Shown: positions 11,559 through 57,196 of the stretch, piece after piece
Layout: each line of letters begins with the position of its first letter
Position numbering within the stretch: position 1 is the first letter of the stretch
Origin: Candidatus Woesebacteria bacterium
GTDB lineage: Bacteria; Patescibacteriota; Microgenomatia; UBA8517
Direction: 5' to 3'
DNA: 64,000 nt
Assembly (NCBI GenBank): GCA_020060565.1
Contig: JAGVAE010000002.1
Coordinates: 371,270-435,269 of the forward strand
Translations under genes and position numbers: made by a program
Notes under the pieces: model-generated
Database searches by the model: none
The model's input: the letters and a program-made list of their open reading frames with translations, nothing else
Told to the model about the DNA's origin: nothing

Positions 11559-11639
11559 TGAAAAAAAAAGGCGATAAAAATAATAGGACACTCTCTTTTA
11601 TTACCTATTATATGGTTTTCATACCTTGCGACCTTACTT

Positions 11640-12530: not shown

Positions 12531-13774
12531 TATATCTTATTTCGACATTGTTATTGTCTTCGGTTTTGACAACCAAAATATTATTTGTAGCCATCGGAAG
12601 GGGTGGAAGCCCCGGTTTTTTTGAATACATGTCTATCCTTGTTCTTGCTGTATTAATAATAGTGGGAACATTCAACTACATTAATGGCAGGGGAAAACAG
12701 AAACCTGAAAAACTTGTAGTTGAGAAAGCTGGTCTTGCTAAGTTTCTCGTAATTCTTAGTATTCTATTTATTTCTACCTCATTATTTATCAATTTTAATA
12801 AAAAAGCTGTTCTTTGGGATGCGGTAGCACTCTATGACGCACGGGCAAGGTTTCTGGTAAAGGGGATTGATTTCAGTGAGATGGTCGAAATTTCGAAATA
12901 TGACTCCAATAACAGCTACTATTATGTTTTATATCCTCCATACACAAGTATGGTTCACTATTTGTGGTATGAGTTGGGAATATCAATTCCTGTTGGTGTC
13001 TTTTATTCCATATCTCTGCTTCTTTTGGCGGTTGTTATTTATTATGTAACGCGGAAACATCAAAGTTTGATTGTGGCTGCATTATTAACATTCATTGTTG
13101 TTTCAAATGGAGTAATTTTTTCTCTATCGCTATCTGAGTATACAAACTTACCCTTTACTTTGCAGATGTTTCTGGGAGTTTTCCTGATATATGAGTATTT
13201 AAAAGATGGATCGAAGTGGAAAATATTTTATGGGATCGGTTTAGTAATAACAACGATGTGGATTAGATTCCTTGAGCCTATATGGGTTGGAGCCGTGCTA
13301 GCACTATTTATTTCAACTTTTACTAAAAAGAAATTTTCAAAAGAACTGTTATACCCTGTATTAATGTTGGTGTGTGGGGTAATTGAATATATTGCATGGC
13401 AGTCTTTTGTTTCAGGATCGGTGGATACTACTAAGATGGTGAGCTTTTCAGCTATTAGATTTCTTGAACCTATTGTTGGAATATTCACAGGATCTCTGAC
13501 TTCAATTTTTGCTTTTTTTGTAAAATCATGGGGGTTAATATTACCTGTGCACATTTTTGCAATATATTTGGCTATATTAAATAAAAAGAAACTTAACTTT
13601 TTACAGATGTTTATGATTTTTACAATGCTGATATATTTTTCCGGATTATATTTTGTTTCCTTCCAATCTGTATGGTGGGATAAATTGGGGGACTCACTTG
13701 TAAGGGGGTCAACATTTATGATACCAATTAGTGGTTATCTTGTATTAGAATACCTGAATGGAAAGAAAAATTAA
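12527..13774 (+). CDS. polytopic membrane protein, family B; copy 1 of a duplicated module
   Basis: WDAVALYDARA, EYTNLPF and RFLEPIW motifs are shared with the 14694..16073 product. Confidence 0.5.
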   Translation: MIYLISTLLLSSVLTTKILFVAIGRGGSPGFFEYMSILVLAVLIIVGTFNYINGRGKQKPEKLVVEKAGLAKFLVILSILFISTSLFINFNKKAVLWDAVALYDARARFLVKGIDFSEMVEISKYDSNNSYYYVLYPPYTSMVHYLWYELGISIPVGVFYSISLLLLAVVIYYVTRKHQSLIVAALLTFIVVSNGVIFSLSLSEYTNLPFTLQMFLGVFLIYEYLKDGSKWKIFYGIGLVITTMWIRFLEPIWVGAVLALFISTFTKKKFSKELLYPVLMLVCGVIEYIAWQSFVSGSVDTTKMVSFSAIRFLEPIVGIFTGSLTSIFAFFVKSWGLILPVHIFAIYLAILNKKKLNFLQMFMIFTMLIYFSGLYFVSFQSVWWDKLGDSLVRGSTFMIPISGYLVLEYLNGKKN

Positions 13775-14693: not shown

Positions 14694-16073
14694 ATGTTAT
14701 TAATATTTGGAATGCTACTGGTTTTAATTTTTGGCTTTCTGTTAAGTGTAATTTTGGTTGAGGAAATGCACCCAATGGAGAGATTGGGAATATCATATCT
14801 TTTAGGTTTTGGAATTTTTACGCTTTTGATGTTTTGTTATTCAACATTAGGTATAAAAATTACATTAATAAGTACGCTGACGGCACTGGGAATTTGTATC
14901 ACAGCGACCTTGGCATTTTTCAAGGTATTTAAACGAAAAATTTCTATAAACCTGTCAGGATTTATTAAGTCATTGTTCTATTTGTCTCGTTTAGAAAAGA
15001 TTATTGTCTCAGTAATAGCGGGACTTGTGGTTGCAAGTTTTACCATCTCGATATATTTCCCTGTATATATTTGGGATGCTTTGGCTTTATACGATTTTCG
15101 CGCAAAAATAATTGCTCAGATTGGTTTTTATACACAAATTGCAAATAATTATGTTTGGTTTGGGGGTTATCCTCTTTTTACATCTTTAAGCCATACGTTG
15201 GTTTATATCTTTGGGGGGAATAATCCCCAATTTTTGTATTCTTCAATGTATGTTTCTTATATTTTTGTATTTTATGGAGCTCTTCGTCAGATTGTTAACA
15301 GAAAAGTCTCGTTAATTTCAACTTTACTTTTGGCTACAACTCCTGTTTTTTTTGATCATTCAACGTTTGCCTATACAAACCTTCCTTATTCAATATTTCT
15401 TTCAATGGGAAGCATTTATATATATGTATGGTTAGTGAAGAATAAACCATTTGGTTATTTAATTCTTGCAGCAGTAATGACAGGACTTTCGACGTGGACA
15501 AGGAGTACTGAACCATTTTGGATAATTAATTTAATAGTATTAGCAATTCTATTGCTTTATAAAATTAAAAAGTACCTTCTACCTTTAGTAGTATATCTAT
15601 CTACATTTTTGTTGATAAGGGAACCGTGGAATATTGTAAATAATTATATTCTTACAGATAGAAAAGCATTAATTGCTTCTAATATTGAACCTGTGACAAG
15701 TTCCTATATCTCTATAATTTCAAGAATACCAGAATGGAATAGGATAGTTGAAATTGGGGTATACATTTATAAATATATAGTAGTCTCGTGGTATCCGTTT
15801 TTGTTTTTGTTTTTGCTTTGTTTGTTACTTAGTGTCAAAAATTTTTTTCATAGATATGGTTCATTTTTTGTTTTAATAATCATTCTTTATTTTTGTCTTT
15901 TGGTATTTGGAACTTACTTATTTACTTTTAGCAACGTTTCCTGGAATGAGATACCCGATTCGGCGAGACGCATGTCAATGTTTTTTATGCCATTAATGAT
16001 TTTTTATGCTGGAATGGTTTTTGATACTTTTTCCTCTAGTACGAATTTTAAAAAAACTAGAAAGATAAAATGA
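14694..16073 (+). CDS. polytopic membrane protein, family B; copy 2, with an extra N-terminal TM region of about 100 aa
   Basis: WDALALYDFRA, AYTNLPY and RSTEPFW motifs are shared with the 12527..13774 product. Confidence 0.5.
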   Translation: MLLIFGMLLVLIFGFLLSVILVEEMHPMERLGISYLLGFGIFTLLMFCYSTLGIKITLISTLTALGICITATLAFFKVFKRKISINLSGFIKSLFYLSRLEKIIVSVIAGLVVASFTISIYFPVYIWDALALYDFRAKIIAQIGFYTQIANNYVWFGGYPLFTSLSHTLVYIFGGNNPQFLYSSMYVSYIFVFYGALRQIVNRKVSLISTLLLATTPVFFDHSTFAYTNLPYSIFLSMGSIYIYVWLVKNKPFGYLILAAVMTGLSTWTRSTEPFWIINLIVLAILLLYKIKKYLLPLVVYLSTFLLIREPWNIVNNYILTDRKALIASNIEPVTSSYISIISRIPEWNRIVEIGVYIYKYIVVSWYPFLFLFLLCLLLSVKNFFHRYGSFFVLIIILYFCLLVFGTYLFTFSNVSWNEIPDSARRMSMFFMPLMIFYAGMVFDTFSSSTNFKKTRKIK

Positions 16074-22358: not shown

Positions 22359-23588
22359 ATGTATACGGAAATAAATAAATGTCGAATCTGTGGAAGCTCA
22401 CACCTGATTGTTGTATTGTCACTTGGAAAACAATATCTTACTGGTGTTTTTCCTAAGTCTTCTGGAGAGAAAATTACAAAGGGTCCTCTTGATATGGTTT
22501 GGTGTACAAAATGTGGCCTTCTTCAAATGAAACAATCATATAGCTCTGAAGAAATGTATGGTGATAATTATGGATATCGCTCTGGACTAAATGTTTCAAT
22601 GGTTAAACATTTACAACAAAAAATGAGAATGTTGGAAATATTGGCTAAACCGAAAGCATCTGAACTATTAATAGATATAGGTAGTAATGATGCTACTTTA
22701 TTAAAAGCCTGTACAGGTAAATATAAAAAAGTGGGAATAGACCCTACAGGGAAAAAATTTAAAAAATACTATTCAAAAGATATGACTCTGATTTCAGATT
22801 TTTTTTCAACGGCTTCTTTTAAAAAAATATTCCCCAATAAAAAGGCAAAGATTATTACATCAATTGCGATGTTTTATGATTTGGAAAGCCCCAGGGATTT
22901 TGTATTAGATGTAAGGAAATGTCTTGCTGACGATGGTATTTGGCATTTTGAACAAAGTTATATGCCAAGTATGCTTCGCACCAATTCTTATGACACGATA
23001 TGTCATGAGCATCTTGAATTTTATTCTTTTAAAGTAGTTAAAAACTTGCTTGAAAAATGTGGAATGAAAGTAGTGGACGTTGAAGTGAATGCAATTAATG
23101 GTGGAAGTTTTGCTGTCACTGCTTGTAAGAAGTCGGCCAAATATAAGTCGAATATGCCAATAATAAATTGGATGTTAAAACAAGAAAAAGATATGGGTCT
23201 TAACACCCCAAAACCATATAGAGATTTTGAGGAGAAAGTTTATAAACATAGAGAGAATCTAAGAGAATTGATAAAAAGTCTTGTTGCAGATGGAAAGAAA
23301 ATAATTGGTTATGGAGCTAGCACAAAAGGTAATGTTCTTCTACAGTTTTGTGGTTTTGATACAAAACATATTTCTTGCATAGCCGAAGTGAATGAAGAAA
23401 AATTTGGATCATTCACCCCAGGAACTAAAATTCCTATAATTTCTGAAAAAGAAGCTAAATCCAAAAAACCAGATTATTTCTTCGTATTGCCATGGCATTT
23501 TAAATACAACATATTGGAACGAGAAAAAGAATTCTTGGAAAACGGGGGAAAGTTCATTTTCCCTCTTCCTTATATAGAAATTATTTGA
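22359..23588 (+). CDS. SAM-dependent sugar C-methyltransferase-like (N-terminal zinc ribbon plus methyltransferase plus C-methyltransferase C-terminal domain)
   Basis: CRICGS...CTKCG zinc-ribbon pairs; LIDIGSNDATLL motif I; domain order as in TylCIII-type enzymes. Confidence 0.65.
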   Translation: MYTEINKCRICGSSHLIVVLSLGKQYLTGVFPKSSGEKITKGPLDMVWCTKCGLLQMKQSYSSEEMYGDNYGYRSGLNVSMVKHLQQKMRMLEILAKPKASELLIDIGSNDATLLKACTGKYKKVGIDPTGKKFKKYYSKDMTLISDFFSTASFKKIFPNKKAKIITSIAMFYDLESPRDFVLDVRKCLADDGIWHFEQSYMPSMLRTNSYDTICHEHLEFYSFKVVKNLLEKCGMKVVDVEVNAINGGSFAVTACKKSAKYKSNMPIINWMLKQEKDMGLNTPKPYRDFEEKVYKHRENLRELIKSLVADGKKIIGYGASTKGNVLLQFCGFDTKHISCIAEVNEEKFGSFTPGTKIPIISEKEAKSKKPDYFFVLPWHFKYNILEREKEFLENGGKFIFPLPYIEII

Positions 23589-24460
23589 TAATGAAAGCAT
23601 TAATATTTGGAGCTGGTGGTCAAGATGGGTATTATTTGACTCAGCTTTTGAAAAAGAAAAAAATTAAAGTTGTTGGGGTAGATAAATTATCTGATGAATG
23701 GCTGATGGGTGACGTTGGCAATTTTTCCTTTGTCGAATCATTAATTAAGAAGAATAGGCCAGATTATATATTTCATTTTGCCGCCATTTCATCAACAGAT
23801 CATGGTGTAGTACTTGAAAATCATGACACAATAAGCACCGGTACATTAAATATGTTAGAAAGCGTGAGATTACATTGCCCAAAATGTAAGGTCTTTTTGT
23901 CGGGTAGTGCCTTGCAGTTTAGAAATACGGGAAAGCCAATAAATGAAAAAACACCATTTGAGGCAAAAAGTGCATATGCGGTTGAGAGAATTCAATCGGT
24001 ATATATGGGTCGTTATTACCGAGAAACCTTTGGTATAGGAGTGTATATAGGATATTTCTTTAATCATGATAGTCCAATTAGACCCAAACAACATGTAAGC
24101 CAGTATATTGTGGAATCAATCAAAAAAATTTCTAAAGATGGGGGGGAAATGAAAATTGGGGATATAAATGTAAAAAAGGAGTTTGGATATGCAGAAGATG
24201 TTGTTGAGGCAATTTGGATTTTGGTAAATCAAAATAAAATATACGAAGCTGTGATTGGTACGGGGAAAGCATATAGTCTAAGAGAATGGGTAGATTATTG
24301 CTTTAAGAAAGTAGGTAAAAATTGGAAAGATCATGTTGTACCTAAAAAGAACTATAAAGCAGAATACAAAGTTTTGGTAAGTAATCCGAAAATAATAAAA
24401 AGCTTAGGCTGGAAACCGAAAGTTGGCTTTTTTGAATTGGCGGACATGATGATGAACTAA
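23585..24460 (+). CDS. GDP-mannose 4,6-dehydratase/reductase (Gmd/Rmd)-like SDR with an atypical catalytic motif
   Basis: ALIFGAGGQDGYYLTQLL N-terminus (GQDG signature); YAVER...FFNHDSP aligns with Gmd YAVAK...LFNHESP; contains a G7 tract at 24140..24146. Confidence 0.65.
   Translation: MIMKALIFGAGGQDGYYLTQLLKKKKIKVVGVDKLSDEWLMGDVGNFSFVESLIKKNRPDYIFHFAAISSTDHGVVLENHDTISTGTLNMLESVRLHCPKCKVFLSGSALQFRNTGKPINEKTPFEAKSAYAVERIQSVYMGRYYRETFGIGVYIGYFFNHDSPIRPKQHVSQYIVESIKKISKDGGEMKIGDINVKKEFGYAEDVVEAIWILVNQNKIYEAVIGTGKAYSLREWVDYCFKKVGKNWKDHVVPKKNYKAEYKVLVSNPKIIKSLGWKPKVGFFELADMMMN
24140..24146 (+). repeat. homopolymeric G7 tract in the coding sequence of the Gmd-like gene
   Basis: agatGGGGGGGaaatg encodes DGGE. 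Confidence 0.9.
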
Positions 24461-31368: not shown

Positions 31369-33450
31369 ATGAAGATATTAGCAATTACACAAGCAAGAGT
31401 TGGGTCAACTCGTCTGCCAGGGAAAGTCCTAAAAACTATAAAAAACAAAACTTTATTAGAGATACACTTAACAAGGATTTTGCAGTCAAAAAAAATATCC
31501 AAATTAATAGTGGCCACAACTATAGAGCCTGGGGCTGAAAAAATTGTAGCTATCGCTAAAAAACTTGGAGTGGAATCATATAGGGGTTCAGTAAATGATG
31601 TCTTGGAACGCTTTTACCTTGCTGCGTTGCCAGAGAACCCTGATTATATTGTACGTTTGACCTCTGATTGTCCACTTATCGATGCCGTCGAGATAGATAA
31701 AGTTATAAACAAATGTATTCAGGGTAAATATGATTATACTTCGAATAATATTGAACCTACTTTTCCAGATGGGCTAGACACTGAAGTGTTTAAATTTTCT
31801 GCGCTCAAAAAAGCTTACAATAAGGCCACTCTTAAATCTGATCGTGAGCATGTTACACCTTATATTTGGAGAAATTCATTGGTAAGAGGAGGAAAGATAT
31901 TTAATTCATTTAATGTAAAATACCATAATGATTTTTCAATTTATCGTCTTACAGTTGATACGCAGGAGGATTTTGATTTGATTAGAAATCTCATTTCTCG
32001 CTTGGGAATAGATAAAGGATGGTTGGATTATGTAAATTATCTAGACAAAAACCCAAAGTTGATGAATATAAACTCTAAATATGAGAGGAATGAGGGCTAC
32101 AAAAAATCACTAGAAGAAGATAAAATGTTCGTGAAAAAAATGAATACAGGACAAAATTTATACAGAAAAGCAAAAACACTTATTCCAGGGGGTACACAGT
32201 TGTTGTCGAAGCGTCCGGAAATGTTTCTACCTAACCATTGGCCAGCCTACTATAGCAAAGCAAAAGGATGTTATGTTTGGGATATGGATGGCAAAAAATT
32301 TATAGACATGAGTTATATGGGAATTGGTGCGTGTGTTTTGGGGTATGCGAATTCTGAAATAGATGAAGCAGCTATTAAAGCAGTTAGGCTTGGAAGTATG
32401 TGTACATTAAACGCGCCAGAAGAAGTTGAGCTGGCTGAATTGATGTGTAAACTTCATCCGTGGGCTCAAATGGTTCGTTATACCAGGGGTGGTGGTGAGG
32501 CGATGTCCGTTGCGATTAGAATTGCTAGAGCAAAATCAGGTAAAGATAAAATATTATTTTGTGGGTATCATGGTTGGCATGATTGGTATTTGGCAGCCAA
32601 CTTAGCAAAGTCTAAAAATTTGGATGGGCATTTATTACCAGGACTTGATCCTTTGGGGGTTCCAAGAGGTTTGAGAGGTAGCTCTGTTCCTTTTAATTAC
32701 AACAATACCGAAGAGTTTTTAAAATTGATAAAAAAATATGAAGGCCAAGTTGGGGTGGTTGTTTTGGAGTCTATAAGAAATCTTAAACCAGAAAAAAAAT
32801 TTATTAATACCATAGCTAAAGTAACAAAAGAGCAGGGTATAGTATTTGTGGTTGATGAAATTACTGCTGCATGGAGAATTAATAATGGAGGAGCACATTT
32901 GGTTTTAGGTATTGAGCCTGACATTGCTGTCTTTGGGAAAGCTATAAGCAATGGTTTCCCAATGGGTGTGGTGATTGGTAAAAGAAGTGTTATGCAAAAA
33001 GCACAAGATACATTTATAAGCAGCACGTATTGGACAGATAGAATTGGACCAACTACTGCTATAGCTACTATAAAATATTTCAAACAAAATAATGTTCACA
33101 AGCATTTAATTTCTGCTGGAGAAAGCATACGTAGGGGCTGGAAAGAATTGGCAGAAAAACACAATCTTAAAATAGAAGTTGGAGGTTTAATTCCTTTAAG
33201 CCATTTTACTTTCGAATACAAAAACCCATTAGTGCTAAAAACATTATTTACTCAAGAGATGTTGGAACTTGGTTTTCTAGCAACAACTGCTTATTATGCT
33301 TCATATGCACACAAACCTCAGCATATTAAAAAATATCTGGAAGCTTGTGATAAAGTTTTTGGATTGATCTCCGATGCCATTAAAAATGGTAATCCAGATA
33401 GGCTGTTAAATGGCCCTGTTTGTCACTCAGGGTTTAAAAGATTAAATTAA
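31369..33450 (+). CDS. bifunctional fusion: SpsF/NeuA-type cytidylyltransferase (N-terminal) plus class-III (GSA-aminomutase-like) aminotransferase (C-terminal)
   Basis: LAITQARVGSTRLPGKVLK at the N-terminus; residues from about 260 to 693 carry the class-III aminotransferase pattern (GG..L..RP...W). Confidence 0.7.
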   Translation: MKILAITQARVGSTRLPGKVLKTIKNKTLLEIHLTRILQSKKISKLIVATTIEPGAEKIVAIAKKLGVESYRGSVNDVLERFYLAALPENPDYIVRLTSDCPLIDAVEIDKVINKCIQGKYDYTSNNIEPTFPDGLDTEVFKFSALKKAYNKATLKSDREHVTPYIWRNSLVRGGKIFNSFNVKYHNDFSIYRLTVDTQEDFDLIRNLISRLGIDKGWLDYVNYLDKNPKLMNINSKYERNEGYKKSLEEDKMFVKKMNTGQNLYRKAKTLIPGGTQLLSKRPEMFLPNHWPAYYSKAKGCYVWDMDGKKFIDMSYMGIGACVLGYANSEIDEAAIKAVRLGSMCTLNAPEEVELAELMCKLHPWAQMVRYTRGGGEAMSVAIRIARAKSGKDKILFCGYHGWHDWYLAANLAKSKNLDGHLLPGLDPLGVPRGLRGSSVPFNYNNTEEFLKLIKKYEGQVGVVVLESIRNLKPEKKFINTIAKVTKEQGIVFVVDEITAAWRINNGGAHLVLGIEPDIAVFGKAISNGFPMGVVIGKRSVMQKAQDTFISSTYWTDRIGPTTAIATIKYFKQNNVHKHLISAGESIRRGWKELAEKHNLKIEVGGLIPLSHFTFEYKNPLVLKTLFTQEMLELGFLATTAYYASYAHKPQHIKKYLEACDKVFGLISDAIKNGNPDRLLNGPVCHSGFKRLN

Positions 33451-35487: not shown

Positions 35488-37266
35488 TTGCCGTACAATT
35501 CTAGGAACATAATGAAAATCATTTGTTTTTCGTCCCACACTGCAACATGGTATTTCGCTTTTGCTGAGGCAGTTATTGCCTGTGCTCTGCAGAAGAAAGG
35601 TCACGAAGTTCTTTTTATAACTCCAGGTAACCAGTTTTCTGGAATAACTAGTTTAAGGCAAGAAAAAATATTAAGAGAAGAGTTTAGTCTACATGGATAT
35701 GAAATTGGAACCGTATTATCCAAAAAAGACCTTAAAGAAATTGCCTTAATAATTAAAAAATTAAATAGAAAAAATTTCGGTAAATTAGTAATTGGAAATA
35801 TTCAAATAGGTAAAATTGCGTTATATGAATTTCTTTTGCGTAACAAAAAAATAAAAATTGAATTTTCCATAGATGAATGGAAAGAATGTATTTCAGAAAT
35901 AGAAAATACACTAGTTTCATTTTATGCCTGCAGAAATATATTGAAAAAAGAAAATCCGGACAGAATATTAATGTACAGTACGCTTTATTCAGTAAACCAT
36001 GTTTGGGAGTTAAATGCCAAACAAAAAAGTATACCGGTATATTTTATGCATCATGGGTCAAACCTTTCAGACATAGACAATACTTTAATAATTGCTAAAA
36101 ATAATGCCTTTTTTTATTTAGATAAACTTAAAAATTACTGGTCAAAATTGAAGGACATTCCAGTAAATCAAGAATTACTAAGTGAGGTGACCGATCATTT
36201 TTTAGAACTACTGAAAGGGAAACATTATCTGGTTTATTCATCACCAAAAAGTAAAGAAACAATTAATATTAGAAAAATTTTCAATATTAATGAAAATCAA
36301 AAAATTCTGACAGCAACAATGAGTAGTTATGATGAAATGGTTGCCGCTAAATATGTTGGAGTTTGGAAAATGTCCAATAAACCTATTTTTCAGACTCAAA
36401 TCGATTGGATTAAAACTCTAGTTAAATATATGAGGCAAAGACAAGACTTATTTCTTTTGATTCGGGTTCACCCGAGGGAATTTCCAAACAAAAGAGATAG
36501 TCTAAAATCGGAACACGCCAAAGTATTGGGAAAGGTTTTAAGAAATTTACCGGACAATGTTAAAGTGAACTGGCCTACGGATAAGATATCAATATATGAT
36601 TTAGCGGAAGAAACTAGTGTTTTTTTAAATGCGTGGTCGTCGGTAGGTTTAGAGATGAGCTTGTTGGGTGTTCCTGTGGTAATTTATTCTAAAGAATTTG
36701 TCCTATATCCTTCAGACATCAATTATTTAGCCAGAAATCGAAAAGATTATTTCGCAAAAATTGAACTAGCTCTAAAAGATGGTTGGAGTTATAAAAAAAT
36801 TAAGAAAGTATATCGCTGGCTAGCATTGCATAATGGCCGAGCGGTTGTTAGGTTTAGAAAAAAACAGACTGAAATCGGTCAATTAACAATCAACGGAACA
36901 ACCCCCCCATTTTTGAGCAATTTTTATAATAGCCTTTCACCTAAAGTAAGATCATATGTTGTAAAGTTGGCAATGGCAATGCCTGGAATATGGATTAACA
37001 GAAGACAGAGGGATGAATGTAGGAGACAACTTATGGAAAAAGTTGATATTTCAAATGTAGAAAAAATGCTTCTCAATTCAGATGACACTTTGGTTGAAGT
37101 AAAAAAGACATTGACTAAACAGACAATGGTGAAAGAAGAGGATTGCAATATTCGCAAAGAAGTAAAAAGAATATTTGAATCAATGTATGGTATGTATTCT
37201 AGAAAAATGCCTATTAAAAAAGGTGGTTTACAGGATAATTTAAGAAATGTTTTTACAAAAAAATGA
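35488..37266 (+). CDS. hypothetical protein, capsule-polysaccharide-biosynthesis/TagF-like GT-B candidate
   Basis: LLIRVHPREFP...VFLNAWSSVGLEMSLLGVPVVIY resembles KpsS/TagF C-terminal motifs; contains a C7 tract at 36902..36908. Confidence 0.35.
   Translation: MPYNSRNIMKIICFSSHTATWYFAFAEAVIACALQKKGHEVLFITPGNQFSGITSLRQEKILREEFSLHGYEIGTVLSKKDLKEIALIIKKLNRKNFGKLVIGNIQIGKIALYEFLLRNKKIKIEFSIDEWKECISEIENTLVSFYACRNILKKENPDRILMYSTLYSVNHVWELNAKQKSIPVYFMHHGSNLSDIDNTLIIAKNNAFFYLDKLKNYWSKLKDIPVNQELLSEVTDHFLELLKGKHYLVYSSPKSKETINIRKIFNINENQKILTATMSSYDEMVAAKYVGVWKMSNKPIFQTQIDWIKTLVKYMRQRQDLFLLIRVHPREFPNKRDSLKSEHAKVLGKVLRNLPDNVKVNWPTDKISIYDLAEETSVFLNAWSSVGLEMSLLGVPVVIYSKEFVLYPSDINYLARNRKDYFAKIELALKDGWSYKKIKKVYRWLALHNGRAVVRFRKKQTEIGQLTINGTTPPFLSNFYNSLSPKVRSYVVKLAMAMPGIWINRRQRDECRRQLMEKVDISNVEKMLLNSDDTLVEVKKTLTKQTMVKEEDCNIRKEVKRIFESMYGMYSRKMPIKKGGLQDNLRNVFTKK
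36902..36908 (+). repeat. homopolymeric C7 tract in the coding sequence of the 35488..37266 gene
   Basis: aCCCCCCCat encodes TPP. Confidence 0.9.
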
Positions 37267-37979: not shown

Positions 37980-39521
37980 ATGAATATATTTTTAACATTT
38001 TCAGATGCAGCCAAATTTGCAGATATTGCAAGAAATGTTATTTCTGGATTAGGTTATAATGGCAATTTTTCTTTTTGGAGAGATGGTGCTTTTGCCCTTT
38101 TGCAAGGGGTAGCTTTTCCTTCTCCATGGTTACCACCACTCATGCCTTTATCAATAGCTCTGGCATTTAAGATATTTGGAGTATCAGATTTGGCAGTAGT
38201 AGGGGTATCTTCTTTTTATTTTATTTTATTGGTTGTTTCTACATTTCTTTTAGGTAAAAAAATATTTGGGAATCTTGTTGGAATACTTTCAGCAATAGTC
38301 ATGGCGATGAGTGTAGATTTCTTGAATTATGCGAGAAACGGTTCGGCTGAGGCTCTTTTCACTTTTGAGATTATTACCACATCTTATTTGTTAACTATAA
38401 AGAAAAAATGGGCAAACGGATTAGCAATTATTTTCGCTATACTAATGTATTTTACTCGCCCTCAGGCCTTTATTTATATTGCAGGATTAATACTTTATTG
38501 GCTTTTAATAAATTTTAAAATCAAAAAAGCACTTATTTTATTTGGTTTGGTATTGGTTGGGGGTTTTTTGATTGATTATTTTATTCTCCCAAATTTTGCT
38601 GGAAAATACTTTTTATATTCTGTATCTGGTAGAGGAATACTAACGGCGACTCAAGTTACAGCTGGAGGGTCAGCTTCAGATTCTTTGAGGGGATATTCTG
38701 TTCCTGAAGCATCTATAGGCTTGTTGCAAATTGCTAAGAAAATATTTTATAACTTATATAATTTTTACAAATTAATTCCCCAAATATCCAATCCATATTT
38801 ATTTGCATTTTTCGTGTTTGGTTTGTTTCGTTGGAGTAAAAGTAATCTTATTAATTCATTTAAAACATCTTCAATATTTATGATCGCGACTACACTATTG
38901 GTATGTGCAGTATCTATTCCTTTCTTTCGCTATATTCATCCCGTAATTCCGTTTATATATATTATTAGTGTTGCAACCATAGTAGAAATTTTAAATCTTA
39001 AATTTATAAATCGTAAATTTATTATTTTTGTCTCCACATCTCTAATTTTAATTTTTTCTGTGGGACAAACTCTAGGCGTCATATTTTTGGACTCAAGATT
39101 TGTAAGGAATACTCACAATATAGATAAACCTCCTGTTTATGTTGTACTTTCAAAAATCCTAAAGGAAACAACTCAACCTTCTGACTTTGTGGTTACAAAT
39201 CTTGATACCTGGGGAAGTTGGTATGGTGAGAGAAGAACTATGTGGTTTCCTGTTGAGCCAAAACAGCTTATTGATACCAAAACAGGAGAAATTCCCTTTA
39301 ATGCAATTTATTTAACAAGTTATAGGATCGATGATGAAAACTATTACATGGGTAAGGATTGGAGAATGATTTTTGACAATCCTAATGACCCTAAAAAATG
39401 GACGTGTGACGGCTGTACTGAGATTGCCAAGGAATTTAAATTAAAAGATGTCTACAAAGTTCCTGCTAGTGATAATTATGAAAGACGGGATGCAAAGGCA
39501 ATACTTCTTGTGAGAAAATAA
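37980..39521 (+). CDS. GT-C glycosyltransferase, ArnT/PMT (GT39/83)-like
   Basis: First loop FSDAAKFADIARNVISG, MYFTRPQAF motif, about 11 TM plus a C-terminal soluble domain. Confidence 0.6.
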   Translation: MNIFLTFSDAAKFADIARNVISGLGYNGNFSFWRDGAFALLQGVAFPSPWLPPLMPLSIALAFKIFGVSDLAVVGVSSFYFILLVVSTFLLGKKIFGNLVGILSAIVMAMSVDFLNYARNGSAEALFTFEIITTSYLLTIKKKWANGLAIIFAILMYFTRPQAFIYIAGLILYWLLINFKIKKALILFGLVLVGGFLIDYFILPNFAGKYFLYSVSGRGILTATQVTAGGSASDSLRGYSVPEASIGLLQIAKKIFYNLYNFYKLIPQISNPYLFAFFVFGLFRWSKSNLINSFKTSSIFMIATTLLVCAVSIPFFRYIHPVIPFIYIISVATIVEILNLKFINRKFIIFVSTSLILIFSVGQTLGVIFLDSRFVRNTHNIDKPPVYVVLSKILKETTQPSDFVVTNLDTWGSWYGERRTMWFPVEPKQLIDTKTGEIPFNAIYLTSYRIDDENYYMGKDWRMIFDNPNDPKKWTCDGCTEIAKEFKLKDVYKVPASDNYERRDAKAILLVRK

Positions 39522-49016: not shown

Positions 49017-50081
49017 ATGAAAATTGCATTCTTAAGTTTTTATAGCGGTGTCGTTTATAGAGGTGTTGAGACATATGTCCACGAACTAGCTGACAAACTA
49101 TCAAAGATGGGTAATGACGTAACTGTCTATCAAAACGGCTCAGCTGTATATGGAGGTTCATACAATACAGTTGTTATTGGAGAGAAAACCCATATGTTTA
49201 AAAAAGGCACCGTAGCAATAGTATTAAATCAACTAATCGACGCATTTGTTGTTGGAAAGTTTACTCAAAAAGCACTAAATCAAATTTCTAAAGATACAGA
49301 TATTTTAGTTGCTACAAATAATCGACTTCAAGCTTTATTGTCAAGGTTGTGGTGTTTATCCAAAAAACCAAAGCTTGTTATTCCTGGACAAAGTGGTCCG
49401 GGACTCGACGAGAGATTTGCACTTTATTGTTTTCCAGACGCTTTTGTCCCCCTTTCTGAGTATCAAAAAGAATGGGCAAAAAAAATAAATCCATTAATTA
49501 AAGTTTCAAGTGTTATACATAATGGCGTATCGCTCGAAAAATTCTCAGGAAAGTTTAAAAGAATTGATTTTGGTTTGAAGGGTAAAGTTATCCTTTGTGC
49601 GGCTGCACTTTGGCACATAATGAAACGTCAACATTTATTAATACGAGCGGTTTCAAAATTAAAGGATGTTTCTTTAATTTTGGCTGGAAGTGGTGAGGAA
49701 AAAGAATATCTTGAAAAGTTGGGGCATGATATGTTGGGTAATCGTTTCCTTGTTAAATCTTTTGACTATGCTGAAATGCCCAGAGTATATGCAAGTTGTG
49801 ATTTGTTTTCTTTTCCAACGTGGAGAATTGAATCGTTTGGGATTGTTATGGTTGAAGCCATGGCATCTGGTTTACCAGTGGTTGCCAGCGATGACCCCAT
49901 CAGAAAAGAAATCGTTGGGAACGCGGGTATATTAGTCGATCCTACTGATACTGACGAATATGCTAAGGCTCTGCAAAAAGCATTAGATATAAATTGGGGA
50001 GACAAGCCCAGAAGACAAGCAGAAAAGTTTTCTTGGGATATAATAGCTAAACAATATGAAAATCTTTTCAAAACACTTTAA
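49017..50081 (+). CDS. glycosyltransferase family 4 (GT-B)
   Basis: ESFGIVMVEAMASGLPVVASDD. Confidence 0.8.
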   Translation: MKIAFLSFYSGVVYRGVETYVHELADKLSKMGNDVTVYQNGSAVYGGSYNTVVIGEKTHMFKKGTVAIVLNQLIDAFVVGKFTQKALNQISKDTDILVATNNRLQALLSRLWCLSKKPKLVIPGQSGPGLDERFALYCFPDAFVPLSEYQKEWAKKINPLIKVSSVIHNGVSLEKFSGKFKRIDFGLKGKVILCAAALWHIMKRQHLLIRAVSKLKDVSLILAGSGEEKEYLEKLGHDMLGNRFLVKSFDYAEMPRVYASCDLFSFPTWRIESFGIVMVEAMASGLPVVASDDPIRKEIVGNAGILVDPTDTDEYAKALQKALDINWGDKPRRQAEKFSWDIIAKQYENLFKTL

Positions 50082-51831
50082 AAACAAAGACAATTTATTC
50101 TTAATTGCAGTCTTAGTTTTTGCATTTTTGCTGCGTGTAATTCTTTTAGATCGTTTTCCAATTGGAATGACTCATGATGAACTGAATCATATTGTTACTG
50201 CCAAATCACTTTTTTTTGAGCACACATTCGTTCCAGGTACGGGACCAGCGGTACTTCCAACAAACATGTCCTATTCTACGGTTACAATACCTGAGGTTTC
50301 ATCAATAATTTTAGCTACATTAATTGGAGGGTTACCATTGTCATTATTCACAAGTAGAATCGTTGGTGCTCTATTCAGTGTACTTTCTATTTGGGCAATC
50401 TATTACATTGCTTTACATATAACCAAAAAGCGTTTGTTTGCACAAATAACCATTCTTCTAATGGCAATAAACCCATGGAGTTTTCTTCTTGGGAGAACAA
50501 TGGCTGAGCTTAACTTCTTTGTTGCCTTTTTTCTTTTAGGATTTTTGGTATTACTTAAATCGAAAGGGTGGGGAATAATGCGTGCTCTACCATTTTATTT
50601 ATTAGGCTTCTTTAGTTATACGGGAGGTCAAATTTCATTTTTAGCTTTTATGATAACCACTCCCATTTATCATTATTTTATTTCAACTAAAAACAAAAAA
50701 AATCTTAAGATATACGCTATTTTTATAGGTATTGTTTCCTTGATTTTTGCGGGATATGTTTTTGTAACTTTACAGAATCAAACATTTAAATCCCGTGGTG
50801 CAGAACTTTATTTACCAAACCAACCTGAAATTGCAGATACTGTGAATGAGAGTAGAAAGCTATCTATTCAAACCCCTTTCAATAACTTATTTATAAATAA
50901 GGCAACGGTATATGCCAATGGTTTTATTAGTAAATACATTAATACATTTTCTGTAGATTTTCTTTTCTTAAAAGGGGAAGCTCGTGCTATTTTTTCATAC
51001 CAAACTCACGGTACATTTTATTTAATTGATTTGATATTTATTGTAATAGGATTATCCTCACTATTTGTCATAAACAGAAAAGGTTGGATTTTATTCTTGG
51101 CAATAATTGCTGGTTGTTCTGTTACGTCGGGTTTAAGTGTAGTAGAAAGTTCATATAGTCAAAGAGTGGGACTTATTTATCCTTTCTTAATAATGCTTTC
51201 AGGAATTGGGATAGCGACAATAATTACAGAGGTAAAACAAAAAAAGTTAAGAATAATATTATCAATTGCAATTACTCTTTTATATTTAATCTCCTTAGCT
51301 AATTTGATGCATATCTATTTTATTCGTTTCCCAATTTATGCATCTGATGGCTGGTTTTTCCAAGACAGAGTACTCACAAGCTATATAAAAAAAGTTAGTA
51401 TGGCTAATACTGAAACTAAAGTAGTGGTCTATTCCGTAGAACCCAAGATAATTTTTGAGGAATATCTTTTTTATACCAACACATACGATAAAAATAATAT
51501 TAAACTAATTAATAAACAACTAGATATAAAGGATTATTCTATTGGTAACATAACCTTTACCGATAAATGTCCTGAGGCAAATCCTAATAAAGACACAATA
51601 ACAATTTTTGAAGGATCTATGGGTTGTTACACCCTATCTAGTCTTACAGATATGGTTCGAATCTCGCGATTAAAAGATGTTCATGCAAACTATCATATTT
51701 ATAATGACCAACTTTGCAATAATTTTAAATTAAATAGTTATATTCCTCTATCTGCATATAATGATTTTTCTGTAGAGAAACAATCTCTGAACCAATTCTG
51801 TTTAAATTGGGTTACTAAGATTGAAGAATGA
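50056..51831 (+). CDS. GT-C glycosyltransferase, ArnT/PMT-like
   Basis: LLDRFPIGMTHDELNH acidic motif after TM1; 591 aa; polytopic with a C-terminal soluble domain. Confidence 0.6.
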   Translation: MKIFSKHFKNKDNLFLIAVLVFAFLLRVILLDRFPIGMTHDELNHIVTAKSLFFEHTFVPGTGPAVLPTNMSYSTVTIPEVSSIILATLIGGLPLSLFTSRIVGALFSVLSIWAIYYIALHITKKRLFAQITILLMAINPWSFLLGRTMAELNFFVAFFLLGFLVLLKSKGWGIMRALPFYLLGFFSYTGGQISFLAFMITTPIYHYFISTKNKKNLKIYAIFIGIVSLIFAGYVFVTLQNQTFKSRGAELYLPNQPEIADTVNESRKLSIQTPFNNLFINKATVYANGFISKYINTFSVDFLFLKGEARAIFSYQTHGTFYLIDLIFIVIGLSSLFVINRKGWILFLAIIAGCSVTSGLSVVESSYSQRVGLIYPFLIMLSGIGIATIITEVKQKKLRIILSIAITLLYLISLANLMHIYFIRFPIYASDGWFFQDRVLTSYIKKVSMANTETKVVVYSVEPKIIFEEYLFYTNTYDKNNIKLINKQLDIKDYSIGNITFTDKCPEANPNKDTITIFEGSMGCYTLSSLTDMVRISRLKDVHANYHIYNDQLCNNFKLNSYIPLSAYNDFSVEKQSLNQFCLNWVTKIEE

Positions 51832-53078
51832 AATTATTAAAGGGAAAAAATCTGCTTCTTTTGGCTATTTTTTTGATTGCTGCAGCAGTCAGGTTTTACA
51901 ATTTCCCCAACCGTGTTACTTTTTGGAGTGAACAAGCGAGAAGTCTTGTAGTTTCGGCTGACTATATTCACCATAAACCATCGCTTCTTGGACAACCGTA
52001 TTTTATTAGGGAAGATTCAAACTCACACATCTTGTATAGTGGAGCGCTTTTTAATTATTCACTTGTTCCACTTCTTTTGGTAACTAATTATGACCCCGTT
52101 ATTATTACTGTATTTTTTACACTTCTTAATATCTTAACTGGGTTTGTAATATATTTAGTTGCAAAGAAATCTTTTAATTCATCAACAGCAATAATATCTA
52201 CATCACTTTTTCTTTTTAACGATTTGATGATCTATCACTCTCTTTTTATATGGGCTTATAATGTTCTTCCTCTGGTTGGAATTCTAACTTTATATTTTTC
52301 TTGGAAGTATACACATAAAAATTCAGAAAAAGATATTTTTACCATAGGTTTACTATCTGGAATTGGAATTAGTTTACAATTCCTTTTTGCACCAATTGCT
52401 CTTTTGGTTTTTATTGTTAACTTTATAAAAAGTAAAAATAAAATACTTGCAACTCTTTTATTTGGTTTTGGAATGATACTAGCTAATCTTCCAATGTTGA
52501 TTTTTGACATACGCCACAACTTTTATAATCTATCTACTTTATTCCAATACTTTCTTGATACCTTGGGGGGGGAAAGTAATGCTAGTTTTTCCTATTACTA
52601 TCTTCTTCCTTTTTGGCCATTGTTTGCAATAATTTTAGGTTACTTTGTTGTAAAAATTATCAAATGGGACAGATTAGTAGCTGCTTTTGTAATTACAATT
52701 TATATATATTTAAATCTGACTTCGCAAAGAGTGTCTTTTATAAAACCTACAGGAATGCCAGAAGGAATTAATACTAGTGATATTGATAAAGCTTCAAATA
52801 TTATCTCTAGAAACGTAAAAGGTGAATTTAATGTTGCAGAAGTCTTAGATTTTGATAAAAGGGCATATGTTTTGAGATATTTTACTGAGTATAAATATGG
52901 CAAAAAACCACTAGGGGAGACCCAATATCAAAATATCAAAGAACTATATGTACTCAGCCAAAAAGGTTATAATTTTGACAAATCAGATGTCTGGGAGGTT
53001 TATGCAGGTGGAAAGTATAATGTAAGCTTATTATCAGACGTAGGAAAAGGATACGCAGTTTACAAACTAACAAAATAA
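51828..53078 (+). CDS. polytopic membrane protein, family C copy 2; contains a G8 tract
   Basis: NLPMLIFDIRHNFYNLST, YYYLLPF and VWEVYAGG are shared with the 47746..48996 product. Confidence 0.5.
   Translation: MKLLKGKNLLLLAIFLIAAAVRFYNFPNRVTFWSEQARSLVVSADYIHHKPSLLGQPYFIREDSNSHILYSGALFNYSLVPLLLVTNYDPVIITVFFTLLNILTGFVIYLVAKKSFNSSTAIISTSLFLFNDLMIYHSLFIWAYNVLPLVGILTLYFSWKYTHKNSEKDIFTIGLLSGIGISLQFLFAPIALLVFIVNFIKSKNKILATLLFGFGMILANLPMLIFDIRHNFYNLSTLFQYFLDTLGGESNASFSYYYLLPFWPLFAIILGYFVVKIIKWDRLVAAFVITIYIYLNLTSQRVSFIKPTGMPEGINTSDIDKASNIISRNVKGEFNVAEVLDFDKRAYVLRYFTEYKYGKKPLGETQYQNIKELYVLSQKGYNFDKSDVWEVYAGGKYNVSLLSDVGKGYAVYKLTK
52565..52572 (+). repeat. homopolymeric G8 tract inside a coding sequence (encodes LGGE)
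   Basis: ccttGGGGGGGGaaag read directly from the sequence. Confidence 0.9.
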
Positions 53079-53098: not shown

Positions 53099-53938
53099 AT
53101 GAAAATATCAGTAATAATTCCAACTTATAATGAAGCAAAAGTAATTGATAATTGCTTGATGTCTTTGGCTAAGCAATCAATGGATGATATGGAGATAATA
53201 GTAGTTGATGATGGTTCAACCGACTCCACAATTAAGAAAATATCCAAATTAAAAACAGGAGATCTCAATCTAAAAATAGAAAGCGGATCTCACCAGGGGG
53301 CGGGTGCAGCAAGAAATTTAGGAGTCCAACAAGCATTAGGTCAAATCCTTGTATTTGTTGATGCTGACATGACTTTTGACAAGAATTTTATTGGAAATCT
53401 TGTTAAGCCGATATTATTAGGGGAAGCCAGGGGAACTTTTAGTAAAGACGAAAATGTAAGCAATTGGGATAACATTTGGGCAAGATGCTGGAATATAAAT
53501 GAAGGTTGGGAAGAAAAAAAACGCCACCCTAAAAACTATCCCGACCACCAGCCCGTATTTCGTGCAATTCTTAAAAGTGAATTTGATAGAGTTTGGGGTT
53601 TTACTCCAGGAGGATATGATGACGATTGGAGCTTGAGTAAAAAACTTGGATACCAGGCGAAAGCATCACCAAATGCAATCTTCTATCACAGAAATCCCGA
53701 ATCTTTGGGTGAAGTTTATAAACATGCAAAGTGGGTGGGAAAAAGAAAGTACAAATATGGTTTTCTTGGCTACATAGTAGGAATTATTAGAGCCTCAGTC
53801 CTAATCTCTTTAGTTGTAGGGATATATAAATCCATTAAACATTTATCACCAACCTTTTTAATATTTAAAATTATCTATGATTTTGGAATTTTGGTCGGTA
53901 TTATAGAACTTTTGATAAGTGGAAAATCTTCAAAATGA
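53099..53938 (+). CDS. glycosyltransferase family 2
   Basis: ISVIIPTYNEAKVI...IIVVDDGSTDST...VFVDADM. Confidence 0.8.
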   Translation: MKISVIIPTYNEAKVIDNCLMSLAKQSMDDMEIIVVDDGSTDSTIKKISKLKTGDLNLKIESGSHQGAGAARNLGVQQALGQILVFVDADMTFDKNFIGNLVKPILLGEARGTFSKDENVSNWDNIWARCWNINEGWEEKKRHPKNYPDHQPVFRAILKSEFDRVWGFTPGGYDDDWSLSKKLGYQAKASPNAIFYHRNPESLGEVYKHAKWVGKRKYKYGFLGYIVGIIRASVLISLVVGIYKSIKHLSPTFLIFKIIYDFGILVGIIELLISGKSSK

Positions 53939-55230
53939 TTTACTTAATTATCTTTGTGGGACTTATATTAAGACTGATTTCATCAAATCAATCACTGTGG
54001 CTTGATGAGGCTACAACTGCACTAGTTGCTAAGATGTCCCTGGGAGATATTTTTACTAAGTTTTTGCCTGGAGATTTTCACCCACCTTTGTTTTATTTAA
54101 TAGAGAAATATTGGTCTACGATATTTGGTTATTCAGAAATTGCACTAAGGGTTCCGTCAATTTTATTTGGTTTGGGGACAATCTATATCACTTACTTAAT
54201 TGCAAAAAAGATTTTTAATAGTCGCATAGCTCTTTTGTCTGGAGTACTAATGGCCACTTCAGGGCTTTCAATTTATTATTCTCAAGAAGCTAGAATGTAT
54301 AGTTTGGCTGCTTTTTTGGTTACTGCACTTTTTTATTTATTTCTAGAAAAAAAGTGGATATTGTTTTCAACTGTATTAGTTCTTCTTGGGGCTTCCGATT
54401 ACGTTTCTCTTTTTGTTCTTCCCGTGTTTTGGATCTTAGGTTTTAAAAATTGGAAGAAACTTTTGTTTTCCCATGTTCCAATTCTTTCATTCTTTGTAAT
54501 CTGGTTTCCTATATTTCAAAAGCAATTATTAAGTGGGCTATCACTTGAAGGATCTAATTGGTGGAATTTGTTAGGTCCTGCAACTTTCAAAAATGCAGCT
54601 CTGATTCCTGTTAAATTTATCTTTGGGAGAATAAGTTTTGATGACAAAACACTTTACGGCATTATTGCTGGGATTGCTATATGTTTATTTAGTTTTGTTC
54701 TTTTCAAAGTCAGAAAAAGTTCAAAGCTTCTTTGGGGTTGGCTGGTTATACCAATAGTACTGGGAATCTTGATTAGTTTTAAGATTCCCACTCTTTCCTA
54801 TTTCAGATTTATCTTTTGTTTACCAGCTCTTTATATTTTAGTGGCGGCGGGATTAGATAAGTTTACAAAATACAGATACTTACTTATAACAATCTTTCTT
54901 TTAATAAATATATCAAGCTCAATGTATTATCTTCTAACCCCAAGATTTCAAAGAGAGGACTGGAGGAAGGCAGTGGGTGAGATAGGGGAAGATGTAATAA
55001 TTTTACCAGCTTACTCACAAACTGAGGCTTTGGAGTATTATGGTAAGGGCGACCAAATAATAAACATTAACAATTTTGAGGGAGGTCAAAAGGTGGTTTG
55101 GCTCTCACGCTATGTTTGGTGGGTGTTTGATTCAACTGATTTGGCCAGGAAGAAAGTAGAGAGTTTAGGCTATAATAAGGTACTTGAAAACAACTTTAAT
55201 GGAGTGGTTTTTTGGAAATATAACAAATGA
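53935..55230 (+). CDS. GT-C glycosyltransferase, ArnT/PMT-like
   Basis: SLWLDEATTAL motif after TM1; polytopic; ATGA coupling with the upstream GT2 (a GT2 plus GT-C pair). Confidence 0.6.
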   Translation: MIYLIIFVGLILRLISSNQSLWLDEATTALVAKMSLGDIFTKFLPGDFHPPLFYLIEKYWSTIFGYSEIALRVPSILFGLGTIYITYLIAKKIFNSRIALLSGVLMATSGLSIYYSQEARMYSLAAFLVTALFYLFLEKKWILFSTVLVLLGASDYVSLFVLPVFWILGFKNWKKLLFSHVPILSFFVIWFPIFQKQLLSGLSLEGSNWWNLLGPATFKNAALIPVKFIFGRISFDDKTLYGIIAGIAICLFSFVLFKVRKSSKLLWGWLVIPIVLGILISFKIPTLSYFRFIFCLPALYILVAAGLDKFTKYRYLLITIFLLINISSSMYYLLTPRFQREDWRKAVGEIGEDVIILPAYSQTEALEYYGKGDQIININNFEGGQKVVWLSRYVWWVFDSTDLARKKVESLGYNKVLENNFNGVVFWKYNK

Positions 55231-56303
55231 AAATAGCAATCGATATAAGCCAAATAGTTTATGGAACTGGGGTATCTGTTTATACAAAGAATCTTGTAGA
55301 TAATCTACTCAAGATTGATCGTGAGAATGAATATATTCTTTTTGCGGGAAGTTTAAGAAGAAAAGGTGAAATTCTTTCAATATATCCTTCATCTAAAGTT
55401 TTTCCTATCCCTCCAACCCTAGCAGATTTGGTTTGGAATAGACTGCATGTATTTCCAATTGAGAAGCTAATAGGGAATGTAGATGTATTTCATACCTCCG
55501 ACTGGTCAGAACCACCCTCAAGTGCCTTTAAGGTGACCACAGTGCATGATTTAGCACCGTTTCTGTATCCCAACCTTTTTCCAAGAGACATAATTCGTAA
55601 TATTGTTGATGTTCATAAACATAAGTTGTCTTGGGTTAGGGAAGAGAGTAAAAGGATAATTGTTCCAACTAACGCTACAAAGAAAGATTTGATAAGTCTT
55701 GGGTATAAAGAACAATTAATTCGTGTTATTCCTGAATCAATCCCCGAAGGATTCAAAAAAGCATCCAAGGAAGAAATTGAAAGAATTCTTCGTAAATATA
55801 AAATCTTTGGAAACTATGTATTGTCAGTTGGAATTGATCCAAGAAAAAATACTGAAAGAATAATAAAAGCGTTTGAACATAGTTCTGCAGGACGGGATCT
55901 TAAAATGGTTTTGGTTGGGTCACCCAAATACACAAAGATAAAAGAAGCAAGGAATATTAGAATCCTGGGTAGAGTAGAGACAAATGACTTAGTAGCCCTC
56001 TACTCAGGTGCAAGTGCACTAATCTACCCATCCCTTTATGAAGGATTTGGTTTACCTATTCTTGAAGCCTTTGCTTGTGAATGTCCAGTGGTTACATCAG
56101 ACATTTCTTCAATGGCTGAAGTTGCAGGTGACGCAGCAGCTTTGGTTGATCCCTACAAAACAGAATCAATTGTGGAAGGTATTGATAGGGTATTGCGAGG
56201 TCCAAAGAGTTATATAGAAAAAGGATTAAGAAGAGTCCAGGATTTCTCTTGGGACAAAACAGCCAGGATGACACTGGATGTCTACAAGGAGGTCATTCTA
56301 TGA
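55227..56303 (+). CDS. glycosyltransferase family 4
   Basis: EGFGLPILEAFACECPVVTSD. Confidence 0.8.
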   Translation: MKIAIDISQIVYGTGVSVYTKNLVDNLLKIDRENEYILFAGSLRRKGEILSIYPSSKVFPIPPTLADLVWNRLHVFPIEKLIGNVDVFHTSDWSEPPSSAFKVTTVHDLAPFLYPNLFPRDIIRNIVDVHKHKLSWVREESKRIIVPTNATKKDLISLGYKEQLIRVIPESIPEGFKKASKEEIERILRKYKIFGNYVLSVGIDPRKNTERIIKAFEHSSAGRDLKMVLVGSPKYTKIKEARNIRILGRVETNDLVALYSGASALIYPSLYEGFGLPILEAFACECPVVTSDISSMAEVAGDAAALVDPYKTESIVEGIDRVLRGPKSYIEKGLRRVQDFSWDKTARMTLDVYKEVIL

Positions 56304-57196
56304 GTTGGGTCTGGGTGGCCTTGCTTTCACCAGCAGTTTACTCAATAGTTAATTTTGTTGATAAATATATTCTTTCGAGGCATATAAAAGACTATAGAGG
56401 GATTTCTATGTATTCAGCTGTAATGGCTGTTATTTTTGGATCATTTTTTTGGTATTTTGGAGGGCAGCCAATACTTTCATCTCGAGATTCAATACTTATT
56501 ATTACCTCAGGTGTTTTTACATTTTGGGCAATGGTTTTGTATTTCAAAGCTCTTTCACTTGAGGATACAAGTAAAATAATAATTTTATTTCAAATGGGGC
56601 CCGTGTTGATTTTAATACTATCCTATTTCTTTTTAAATGAAAGGATAAATTTAGGTCAATTTATTGGCTTTTTATTGGTCTTATCTGCATCTGTTGGAGT
56701 GTCGGTTGAAAAGAAAGAAATGAGATTGAAGCTCTCGAAGTCGTTCTATTTAATTTTGTTGAATCAAATATTGTGGTCGGTTGGGGCGGTGATTTTTAAA
56801 TTTGTAGTAGATCAAAACAGCTTTATAAAAGTTGTATCGTATGAGAGTTGGGGAATAGCTTTGGGAGGAATAATACTGTTTGCTGCATTTCCAAATATCC
56901 GTAATCCGTTTTTAAATACTTTCAAAACACTAGAAAAACGGGCTGTATTTTTTGTTTTCTTAAATGAAGGTATTTTTGTAATAGCAAGATTATTAAATTT
57001 TGCGGCCATATCAATGGGTCCTTTGGCATTGGTGAGTATCTTAGGAAGCACATCGGTATTTTTTGGTTTAATTTATGGTGTTATTCTTTCACTTGTTTTT
57101 CCAAGTATATTCAAAGAAGGGTTGTCAAAACAATCTATAATTAAAAATGTTGGGTTTGGGATCTTGGCATTTATAGGAATTTGTTTTATTTATTAA
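56300..57196 (+). CDS. DMT/EamA-like 10-TM transporter; tool start 56249
   Basis: Two repeats of five TM helices; AAGGAGG SD at 56287..56293, 7 nt upstream of the ATG. Confidence 0.45.
   Translation: MSWVWVALLSPAVYSIVNFVDKYILSRHIKDYRGISMYSAVMAVIFGSFFWYFGGQPILSSRDSILIITSGVFTFWAMVLYFKALSLEDTSKIIILFQMGPVLILILSYFFLNERINLGQFIGFLLVLSASVGVSVEKKEMRLKLSKSFYLILLNQILWSVGAVIFKFVVDQNSFIKVVSYESWGIALGGIILFAAFPNIRNPFLNTFKTLEKRAVFFVFLNEGIFVIARLLNFAAISMGPLALVSILGSTSVFFGLIYGVILSLVFPSIFKEGLSKQSIIKNVGFGILAFIGICFIY

Follow-up and report, generated by a model that had tools for sequence, protein, structure and literature searches.

The window analyzed here is a 64-kb stretch of DNA that consists almost wholly of a single glycan-biosynthesis island on the plus strand. 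At least nine GT-C paralogs of the PMT_2 type are encoded alongside GT2 and GT4 transferases, methyltransferases, nucleotide-sugar enzymes, an ABC-2/Wzt pair and Wzx- and Wzy-like proteins (Table 1), and the density of GT-C paralogs is unusually high. One of these GT-C genes carries an internal run of eight consecutive G (hereafter the tract gene). Its start codon and the stop codon of the gene before it overlap in ATGA, and the local order GT2, GT-C, GT-C, GT1, 591-aa gene, tract gene, GT2, GT-C, GT4 is kept in the closest relatives. The tract gene thus belongs stably to the operon and is no accessory gene of particular strains.

Other features of the island were recorded in the course of the annotation. 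The plus-strand organization is broken by a Fic/DOC-domain gene and a 141-aa ORF, both on the minus strand, the latter overlapping a plus-strand methyltransferase ORF, so that one of these two calls may be spurious. The EamA transporter gene is absent at that position in L081, L083 and L084, three of the related loci (L001-L087) gathered for comparison, in which the cluster is otherwise syntenic. The neighbours of a 693-aa fusion of a cytidylyltransferase (CTP_transf_3) and a class-III aminotransferase are two aldo/keto reductases together with sugar dehydratase/epimerase genes, an arrangement suggestive of a route to an unusual activated amino sugar. Two genes of ~591 aa without a family match, one of them holding the C7 run, were considered as possible paralogs, and this relationship was rejected after comparison. 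The window's longest A run, A9, is located between two ORFs, in an 81-bp gap.

Table 1 Coordinates of the tract gene, the homopolymer runs and other features of the 64-kb window
Feature	Position	Strand	Remarks
Tract gene, predicted GT-C-fold membrane glycosyltransferase (PMT_2/ArnT-like)	51828..53078	+	416 aa; intact ("ON") reading frame
G8 homopolymer	52565..52572	+	Third base of Leu246 (TTG), Gly247 (GGG), Gly248 (GGG), first base of Glu249 (GAA)
Comparator G7 run	24140..24146	+	GAT GGG GGG GAA (D-G-G-E), in NAD-dependent epimerase/dehydratase gene 23585..24460
Comparator C7 run	36902..36908	+	ACC CCC CCA (T-P-P), in 592-aa gene without family match, 35488..37266
Paralogous GT-C gene	47746..48996	+	25% amino acid identity to the tract gene; no tract at the equivalent position
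Upstream 591-aa gene without family match	50056..51831	+	Present in L079, L080 and L081; absent in L083 and L084
Downstream GT2 glycosyltransferase	53099..53938	+	Adjoins the tract gene in all syntenic relatives
Genes with PMT_2 matches (at least eight)	14694-16073, 37980-39521, 39525-41045, 46398-47744, 47746-48996, 51828-53078, 53935-55230, 61787-63280		
DUF6056 gene	41042-42412		
Large ORFs without family match (examples)	1121-2563, 3775-5055, 6177-8429(-), 9981-11558, 12527-13774		
Fic/DOC-domain gene	42413-43495	-	
141-aa ORF	43480-43905	-	Overlaps the methyltransferase ORF
Methyltransferase ORF	43544-44290	+	
Cytidylyltransferase/class-III aminotransferase fusion	31369-33450		693 aa
EamA transporter gene	56249-57196		
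A9 run	11561-11569		Starts 3 bases past the stop of ORF 9981-11558; upstream of ORF 11640-12530

The tract gene and its product

The preliminary description of this locus had called the tract gene a surface-glycosylation membrane protein gene, and this assignment was borne out by AlphaFold2 and Foldseek analysis together with its position in the island. The Pfam PMT_2 (PF13231) match of the product is weak (E=2.5e-5; at 25.0 bits it falls slightly short of the 26.1 cut-off) and no NCBIfam profile matched it; a precomputed PF13231 match is present in many of its orthologs. More than 200 homologs were found in uncultured Patescibacteria, Microgenomates and Woesebacteria, some of them named "glycosyltransferase family 39" (GT39). 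The AlphaFold2 model, built on an alignment of 57 homologs, presented high confidence (pLDDT 92.6, pTM 0.89), and its best Foldseek match was ArnT (5ezm, E 4.9e-6, TMq 0.61), followed by STT3, AglB, PglB, ALG and PMT enzymes, with the top matches at probability 1.00. Both a multi-pass transmembrane (TM) core and an extracytoplasmic C-terminal domain were present in the model and supported by the Foldseek matches, and the modeled product has the GT-C fold of lipid-linked-sugar transferases. Residues E35 and Q36, nearly invariant after the first TM helix in the homolog alignment, fit the catalytic acidic residue expected in the first extracytoplasmic loop of such enzymes. The predicted fold thus matches ArnT within the GT-C lipid-linked-sugar transferases (Pfam PMT_2, CAZy GT39/GT83-like), although the product is shorter (416 aa versus about 540 aa) and shares only ~11% sequence identity with ArnT; this likeness belongs to the gene and not to the G8 tract within it.

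Direct reading of the window confirmed that the tract lies in frame as LGGE, with the codons TTG GGG GGG GAA specifying L246-G247-G248-E249. This places it at 59% of the gene length and within a conserved motif, and in the model L246 closes helix 233-246 while G247-E249 open loop 247-255, which leads into TM helix 256-280. The lack of a tract in the paralogous GT-C gene upstream was likewise confirmed, as alignment puts "RYGNFSVGYTFN" (including YGNFSVGY) at the equivalent region.

Frequency of long G/C runs relative to chance

The G8 tract is the only G or C run of at least eight in the window, the next longest being the G7 and C7 runs listed in Table 1. At 32% G+C, independent draws of single bases (i.i.d.) predict 0.058 G runs and 0.009 C runs of this length per window (~0.07 together), and the tract had accordingly been described as highly improbable in so AT-rich a genome. 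This null takes no account of codon and dinucleotide structure, and the improbability did not survive when these were included. When the 59 ORF proteins of the window were kept and each codon was redrawn from the window's own codon usage, 0.23 G/C runs of at least eight were expected per window, with P(>=1)=0.20. Dinucleotide-preserving shuffles produced a mean of 0.95 such runs, and 54 of 100 shuffles had at least one. The i.i.d. expectation hence overstates the rarity of short G runs ~3- to 14-fold in the AT-rich coding sequence of this window. For runs of at least seven, three were observed against 1.0 expected by codon resampling (P=0.076), while overlapping G7 pattern matches numbered four against 2.9 on the dinucleotide null.

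The origin of these runs can be read from their codons, as every G run of at least six in the window is a GGG-GGG Gly-Gly dipeptide lengthened by adjoining codons. TTG accounts for 19% of Leu codons and GGG for 16% of Gly codons in the window, and its proteins contain 65 Gly-Gly dipeptides; ~1.6 GGG-GGG pairs are therefore expected, and three were seen. G/C runs of length 5, 6, 7 and 8 number 34, 1, 2 and 1, respectively, a decaying tail with no second mode. Overall, the G8 tract is real yet statistically unremarkable, because both the codon-aware and the dinucleotide null give a chance-level frequency.

The site in orthologs and long runs in related loci

To compare the site between relatives, the 57 homologs were aligned and DNA was retrieved for every homolog that keeps [L/F]-G-G. 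The homologs share the motif D-T-L-x-G-K-S at this site, in which the position of G248 is Gly in 53 of 57 and that of L246 is Leu in 42 of 57. The position of G247 varies across the set, yet is occupied by Gly in the closest relatives. Position 249 is K or R in 38 of 57 homologs, and Glu occurs in the window sequence only. Nine distinct orthologs (63-81% amino acid identity) have [L/F]-G-G at the site, and all of them encode it with interrupted codons: TTA GGA GGG AAA in the closest (L079; 81% amino acid and 82% nucleotide identity), CTG GGA GGA AGA in L080, TTG GGC GGT AAG in L081/L082, TTA GGT GGT AAA in L083, TTA GGA GGT in L084/L085 and L022, CTC GGT GGA in L086 and TTC GGT GGG in L087. 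No more than four consecutive G occur at the site in these orthologs, and no G/C run longer than five occurs anywhere in their genes. More broadly, G8 is absent from the orthologous site in ~75 homologous loci, where the longest G run is five. To arrive at the run in the window from these sequences, G is needed at two synonymous third codon positions, together with an AAA->GAA (K->E) change specific to the lineage. The preliminary description had named in advance two observations that would together refute a switch, one of which was an interrupted tract encoding the same amino acids in orthologs; this is the arrangement found in all nine.

These comparisons cover relatives that are at most 82% identical at the nucleotide level. 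An exact-protein look-up returned no identical protein on record, and the protein search returned no near-identical truncated fragments of the product (best match, 81% amino acid identity). Scans of genome and metagenome contigs returned no locus from the same species and nothing above 73% amino acid identity.

Long G/C runs were also counted across the related loci (L001-L087; 468 kb), most of which represent the same glycan clusters. Because some of them are near-duplicates, the effective sample falls short of 468 kb. No G/C run of at least eight was present (3.2 expected under i.i.d.), and the six runs of at least seven (13.7 expected under i.i.d.) were scattered. Among the close relatives, G7 runs were located in GT1/GT4 genes of L083 (10889-10895) and L084 (5496-5502), both as GGG GGG GAA (Gly-Gly-Glu). 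These two runs were checked further and were conserved neither in orthologs of 87-92% identity nor in the window; runs of this kind come and go sporadically. The related loci are depleted in long G/C runs compared to the i.i.d. expectation, the opposite of phasome-bearing genomes, and this depletion may reflect selection against slippage-prone runs. Several of the records in this sample (L002, L007, L009, L010, L013, L015 and L018-L021) are metagenome-assembled genomes titled "uncultured Gammaproteobacteria/Pseudomonadales bacterium" that carry clear Microgenomates-type cluster homologs; their taxonomy is probably mislabelled.

Interpretation of the tract and comparison with known systems

Loss of one G (G7) introduces a stop after 267 aa, the last 19 residues being out of frame, and gain of one G (G9) introduces a stop after 250 aa, so that a one-unit change in either direction abolishes the full-length product. 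Both slipped products lack TM helices 256-297 and the C-terminal domain (300-416) with its invariant residues (F334, N335, D341, F342, D343, R350, Y351, W389 and E390), and are most likely inactive. Because slips of one unit would truncate the protein, the site is plausibly a hot spot of mutation, though a mild one, where the rate of frameshifting may be elevated. No repair genes were found among the gene annotations of the 64-kb window; elsewhere in the Candidate Phyla Radiation (CPR), MutS/MutL are absent in Saccharibacteria and present in some other lineages (PMC8406219).

Taken together, the G8 tract is most probably a chance by-product of the codons used for a conserved L-G-G motif and not an evolved contingency switch, because its frequency is at chance level and related genomes lack it. 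In this reading the gene would encode a GT-C-fold, lipid-linked-sugar-dependent transferase in an envelope-glycan island of a Microgenomates/Woesebacteria-like CPR bacterium. The loop motif D-T-L-G-G-(K/E)-S would require the nearly invariant Gly248, with Gly247 also kept in close relatives, and the three codons of the window lineage happen to be TTG GGG GGG, the eighth G being supplied by the K->E change. Like any G8, the run would probably be a mild hot spot of replication slippage, and a slip would yield a truncated enzyme, most likely inactive, without its last two TM helices and C-terminal soluble domain. Selection for switching appears to be absent at this site.

The main alternative, proposed in the preliminary description, is a contingency locus in which slipped-strand mispairing turns the GT-C transferase ON (G8) and OFF (G7 or G9), and which would have to be lineage-specific and recently arisen. 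Such a switch could vary one cell-surface glycan decoration, e.g., for phage evasion or for attachment of an episymbiont to its host. Part of the proposal stands. The tract lies inside an ORF and is long enough by experimentally validated thresholds, which were established in an equally AT-rich organism, Campylobacter jejuni, where poly-G tracts of at least seven are counted and those of at least eight were shown to mediate switching (PMC6321876), and where the G8 of cj1139 switches at a high rate (PMC3401435). Changes of one unit truncate the product as described above, and the product, a predicted GT-C enzyme acting on surface glycans, is of a class typical of contingency genes. With at least nine GT-C paralogs in the island, loss of the tract gene may therefore be tolerated. 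Runs of at least seven are marginally above the codon-aware expectation, G8 is somewhat unusual for a clade whose loci seem to avoid long G/C runs, and the K->E replacement behind the eighth G is unusual, since the position is basic in most homologs.

The classification as a contingency locus is nevertheless not upheld by the comparative evidence. Tracts are not commoner than chance in the window (one versus 0.23 or 0.95 expected), the tract is missing from all nine orthologs that encode the same peptide, and the relatives are depleted in long G/C runs. Moreover, the gene is conserved and syntenic, and the tract occupies a conserved motif in its middle part. Organisms relying on such switches carry tracts in clusters, whereas the 64 kb of glycan genes contain a single one of this length. 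Non-conserved tracts are common in true phase-variable gene families, as in 56% of the phase-variable homology groups of Campylobacter some homologs have an interrupted tract (PMC6321876); the lack of conservation at 72-82% nucleotide identity therefore only weakens the case for a lineage-specific switch. The literature searched contained no report of simple sequence repeat (SSR) phase variation in Patescibacteria/CPR. Considering both sides, a recent contingency locus appears unlikely, and the more specific claim of a first case in which an SSR turns a surface-glycan GT-C transferase ON and OFF in an episymbiont of the CPR/Patescibacteria is more doubtful still. If a true switch were present, SSR-based phase variation would extend to the CPR, and stochastic surface-glycan heterogeneity, directed against phage or serving host attachment, would have to be considered in episymbiotic ultra-small bacteria.

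A sequencing or assembly artefact that altered the length or identity of the homopolymer is very improbable. Homopolymers are error-prone on some platforms, but a run of precisely eight keeps the ORF in frame and aligns to the orthologs without gaps (LGGE versus LGGK), which makes an artefact unlikely. A length error would break the ORF, while the full 416-aa product is found with a C-terminal domain conserved to its last residues, and poly-G arising from two-colour chemistry is expected at read or contig ends and not inside a conserved motif. Programmed recoding at the run, by transcriptional slippage or ribosomal frameshifting to give an alternative product, is the least credible reading: homopolymers can promote RNA polymerase slippage, but most of the sites known for it are long runs of A/T, the orthologs lack the run, the in-frame product is the conserved one, and both alternative frames stop at once (within 1-19 codons) without a conserved ORF.

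Chance codon choice therefore remains the preferred account of the G8 tract, and it bears on how such runs are read in general. A single intragenic G8 in an AT-rich genome does not stand out statistically when codon and dinucleotide structure are considered. Gly-Gly dipeptides by themselves yield such G runs at roughly 0.2-1 per 64 kb, so a lone tract without population or comparative support should not be called a switch.

The closest known counterparts are the poly-G/C tracts in phase-variable glycan genes of C. jejuni, e.g., the G8 of cj1139/wlaN and tracts in the LOS, capsule and flagellin-glycosylation loci. The phase-variable enzymes of C. jejuni are mostly GT-A or GT-B transferases and not GT-C. 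Shared with the window are AT-richness (~31-32% GC), an intragenic G8, a gene of surface-glycan biosynthesis and a frameshift that truncates the enzyme. At 31% GC, C. jejuni carries 11-29 tracts of at least seven per genome, above the chance prediction (PMC3401435, PMC6321876), and its run lengths are bimodal, with G5, G6, G7 and G8 numbering 303, 18, 0 and 4, hence few of length G6-G8, and a mode at 9-10 (PMC3401435). Unlike this pattern, the window has a single tract at chance frequency, decaying run lengths and no conservation in orthologs, and its relatives are depleted in such runs.

The contingency loci of Neisseria and Haemophilus, which affect LOS and pilin glycosylation (lgt and pgl genes) through homopolymer or tetranucleotide repeats, share with the proposed switch the concept of SSR slippage within a glycosyltransferase ORF that turns expression ON or OFF. 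Their tracts are kept across strains at variable length and are statistically over-represented, whereas the tract described here is neither conserved in orthologs nor over-represented. A further parallel is the 7C run of glpK in Mycobacterium tuberculosis, an incidental hypermutable homopolymer. Like the G8 tract, it is a short G/C run that can shift the frame reversibly, lies in a gene that is conserved and not accessory, and forms no part of a large phasome. For glpK, reversible frameshift variants were observed directly in isolates, which sets it apart from the G8 tract of the window.
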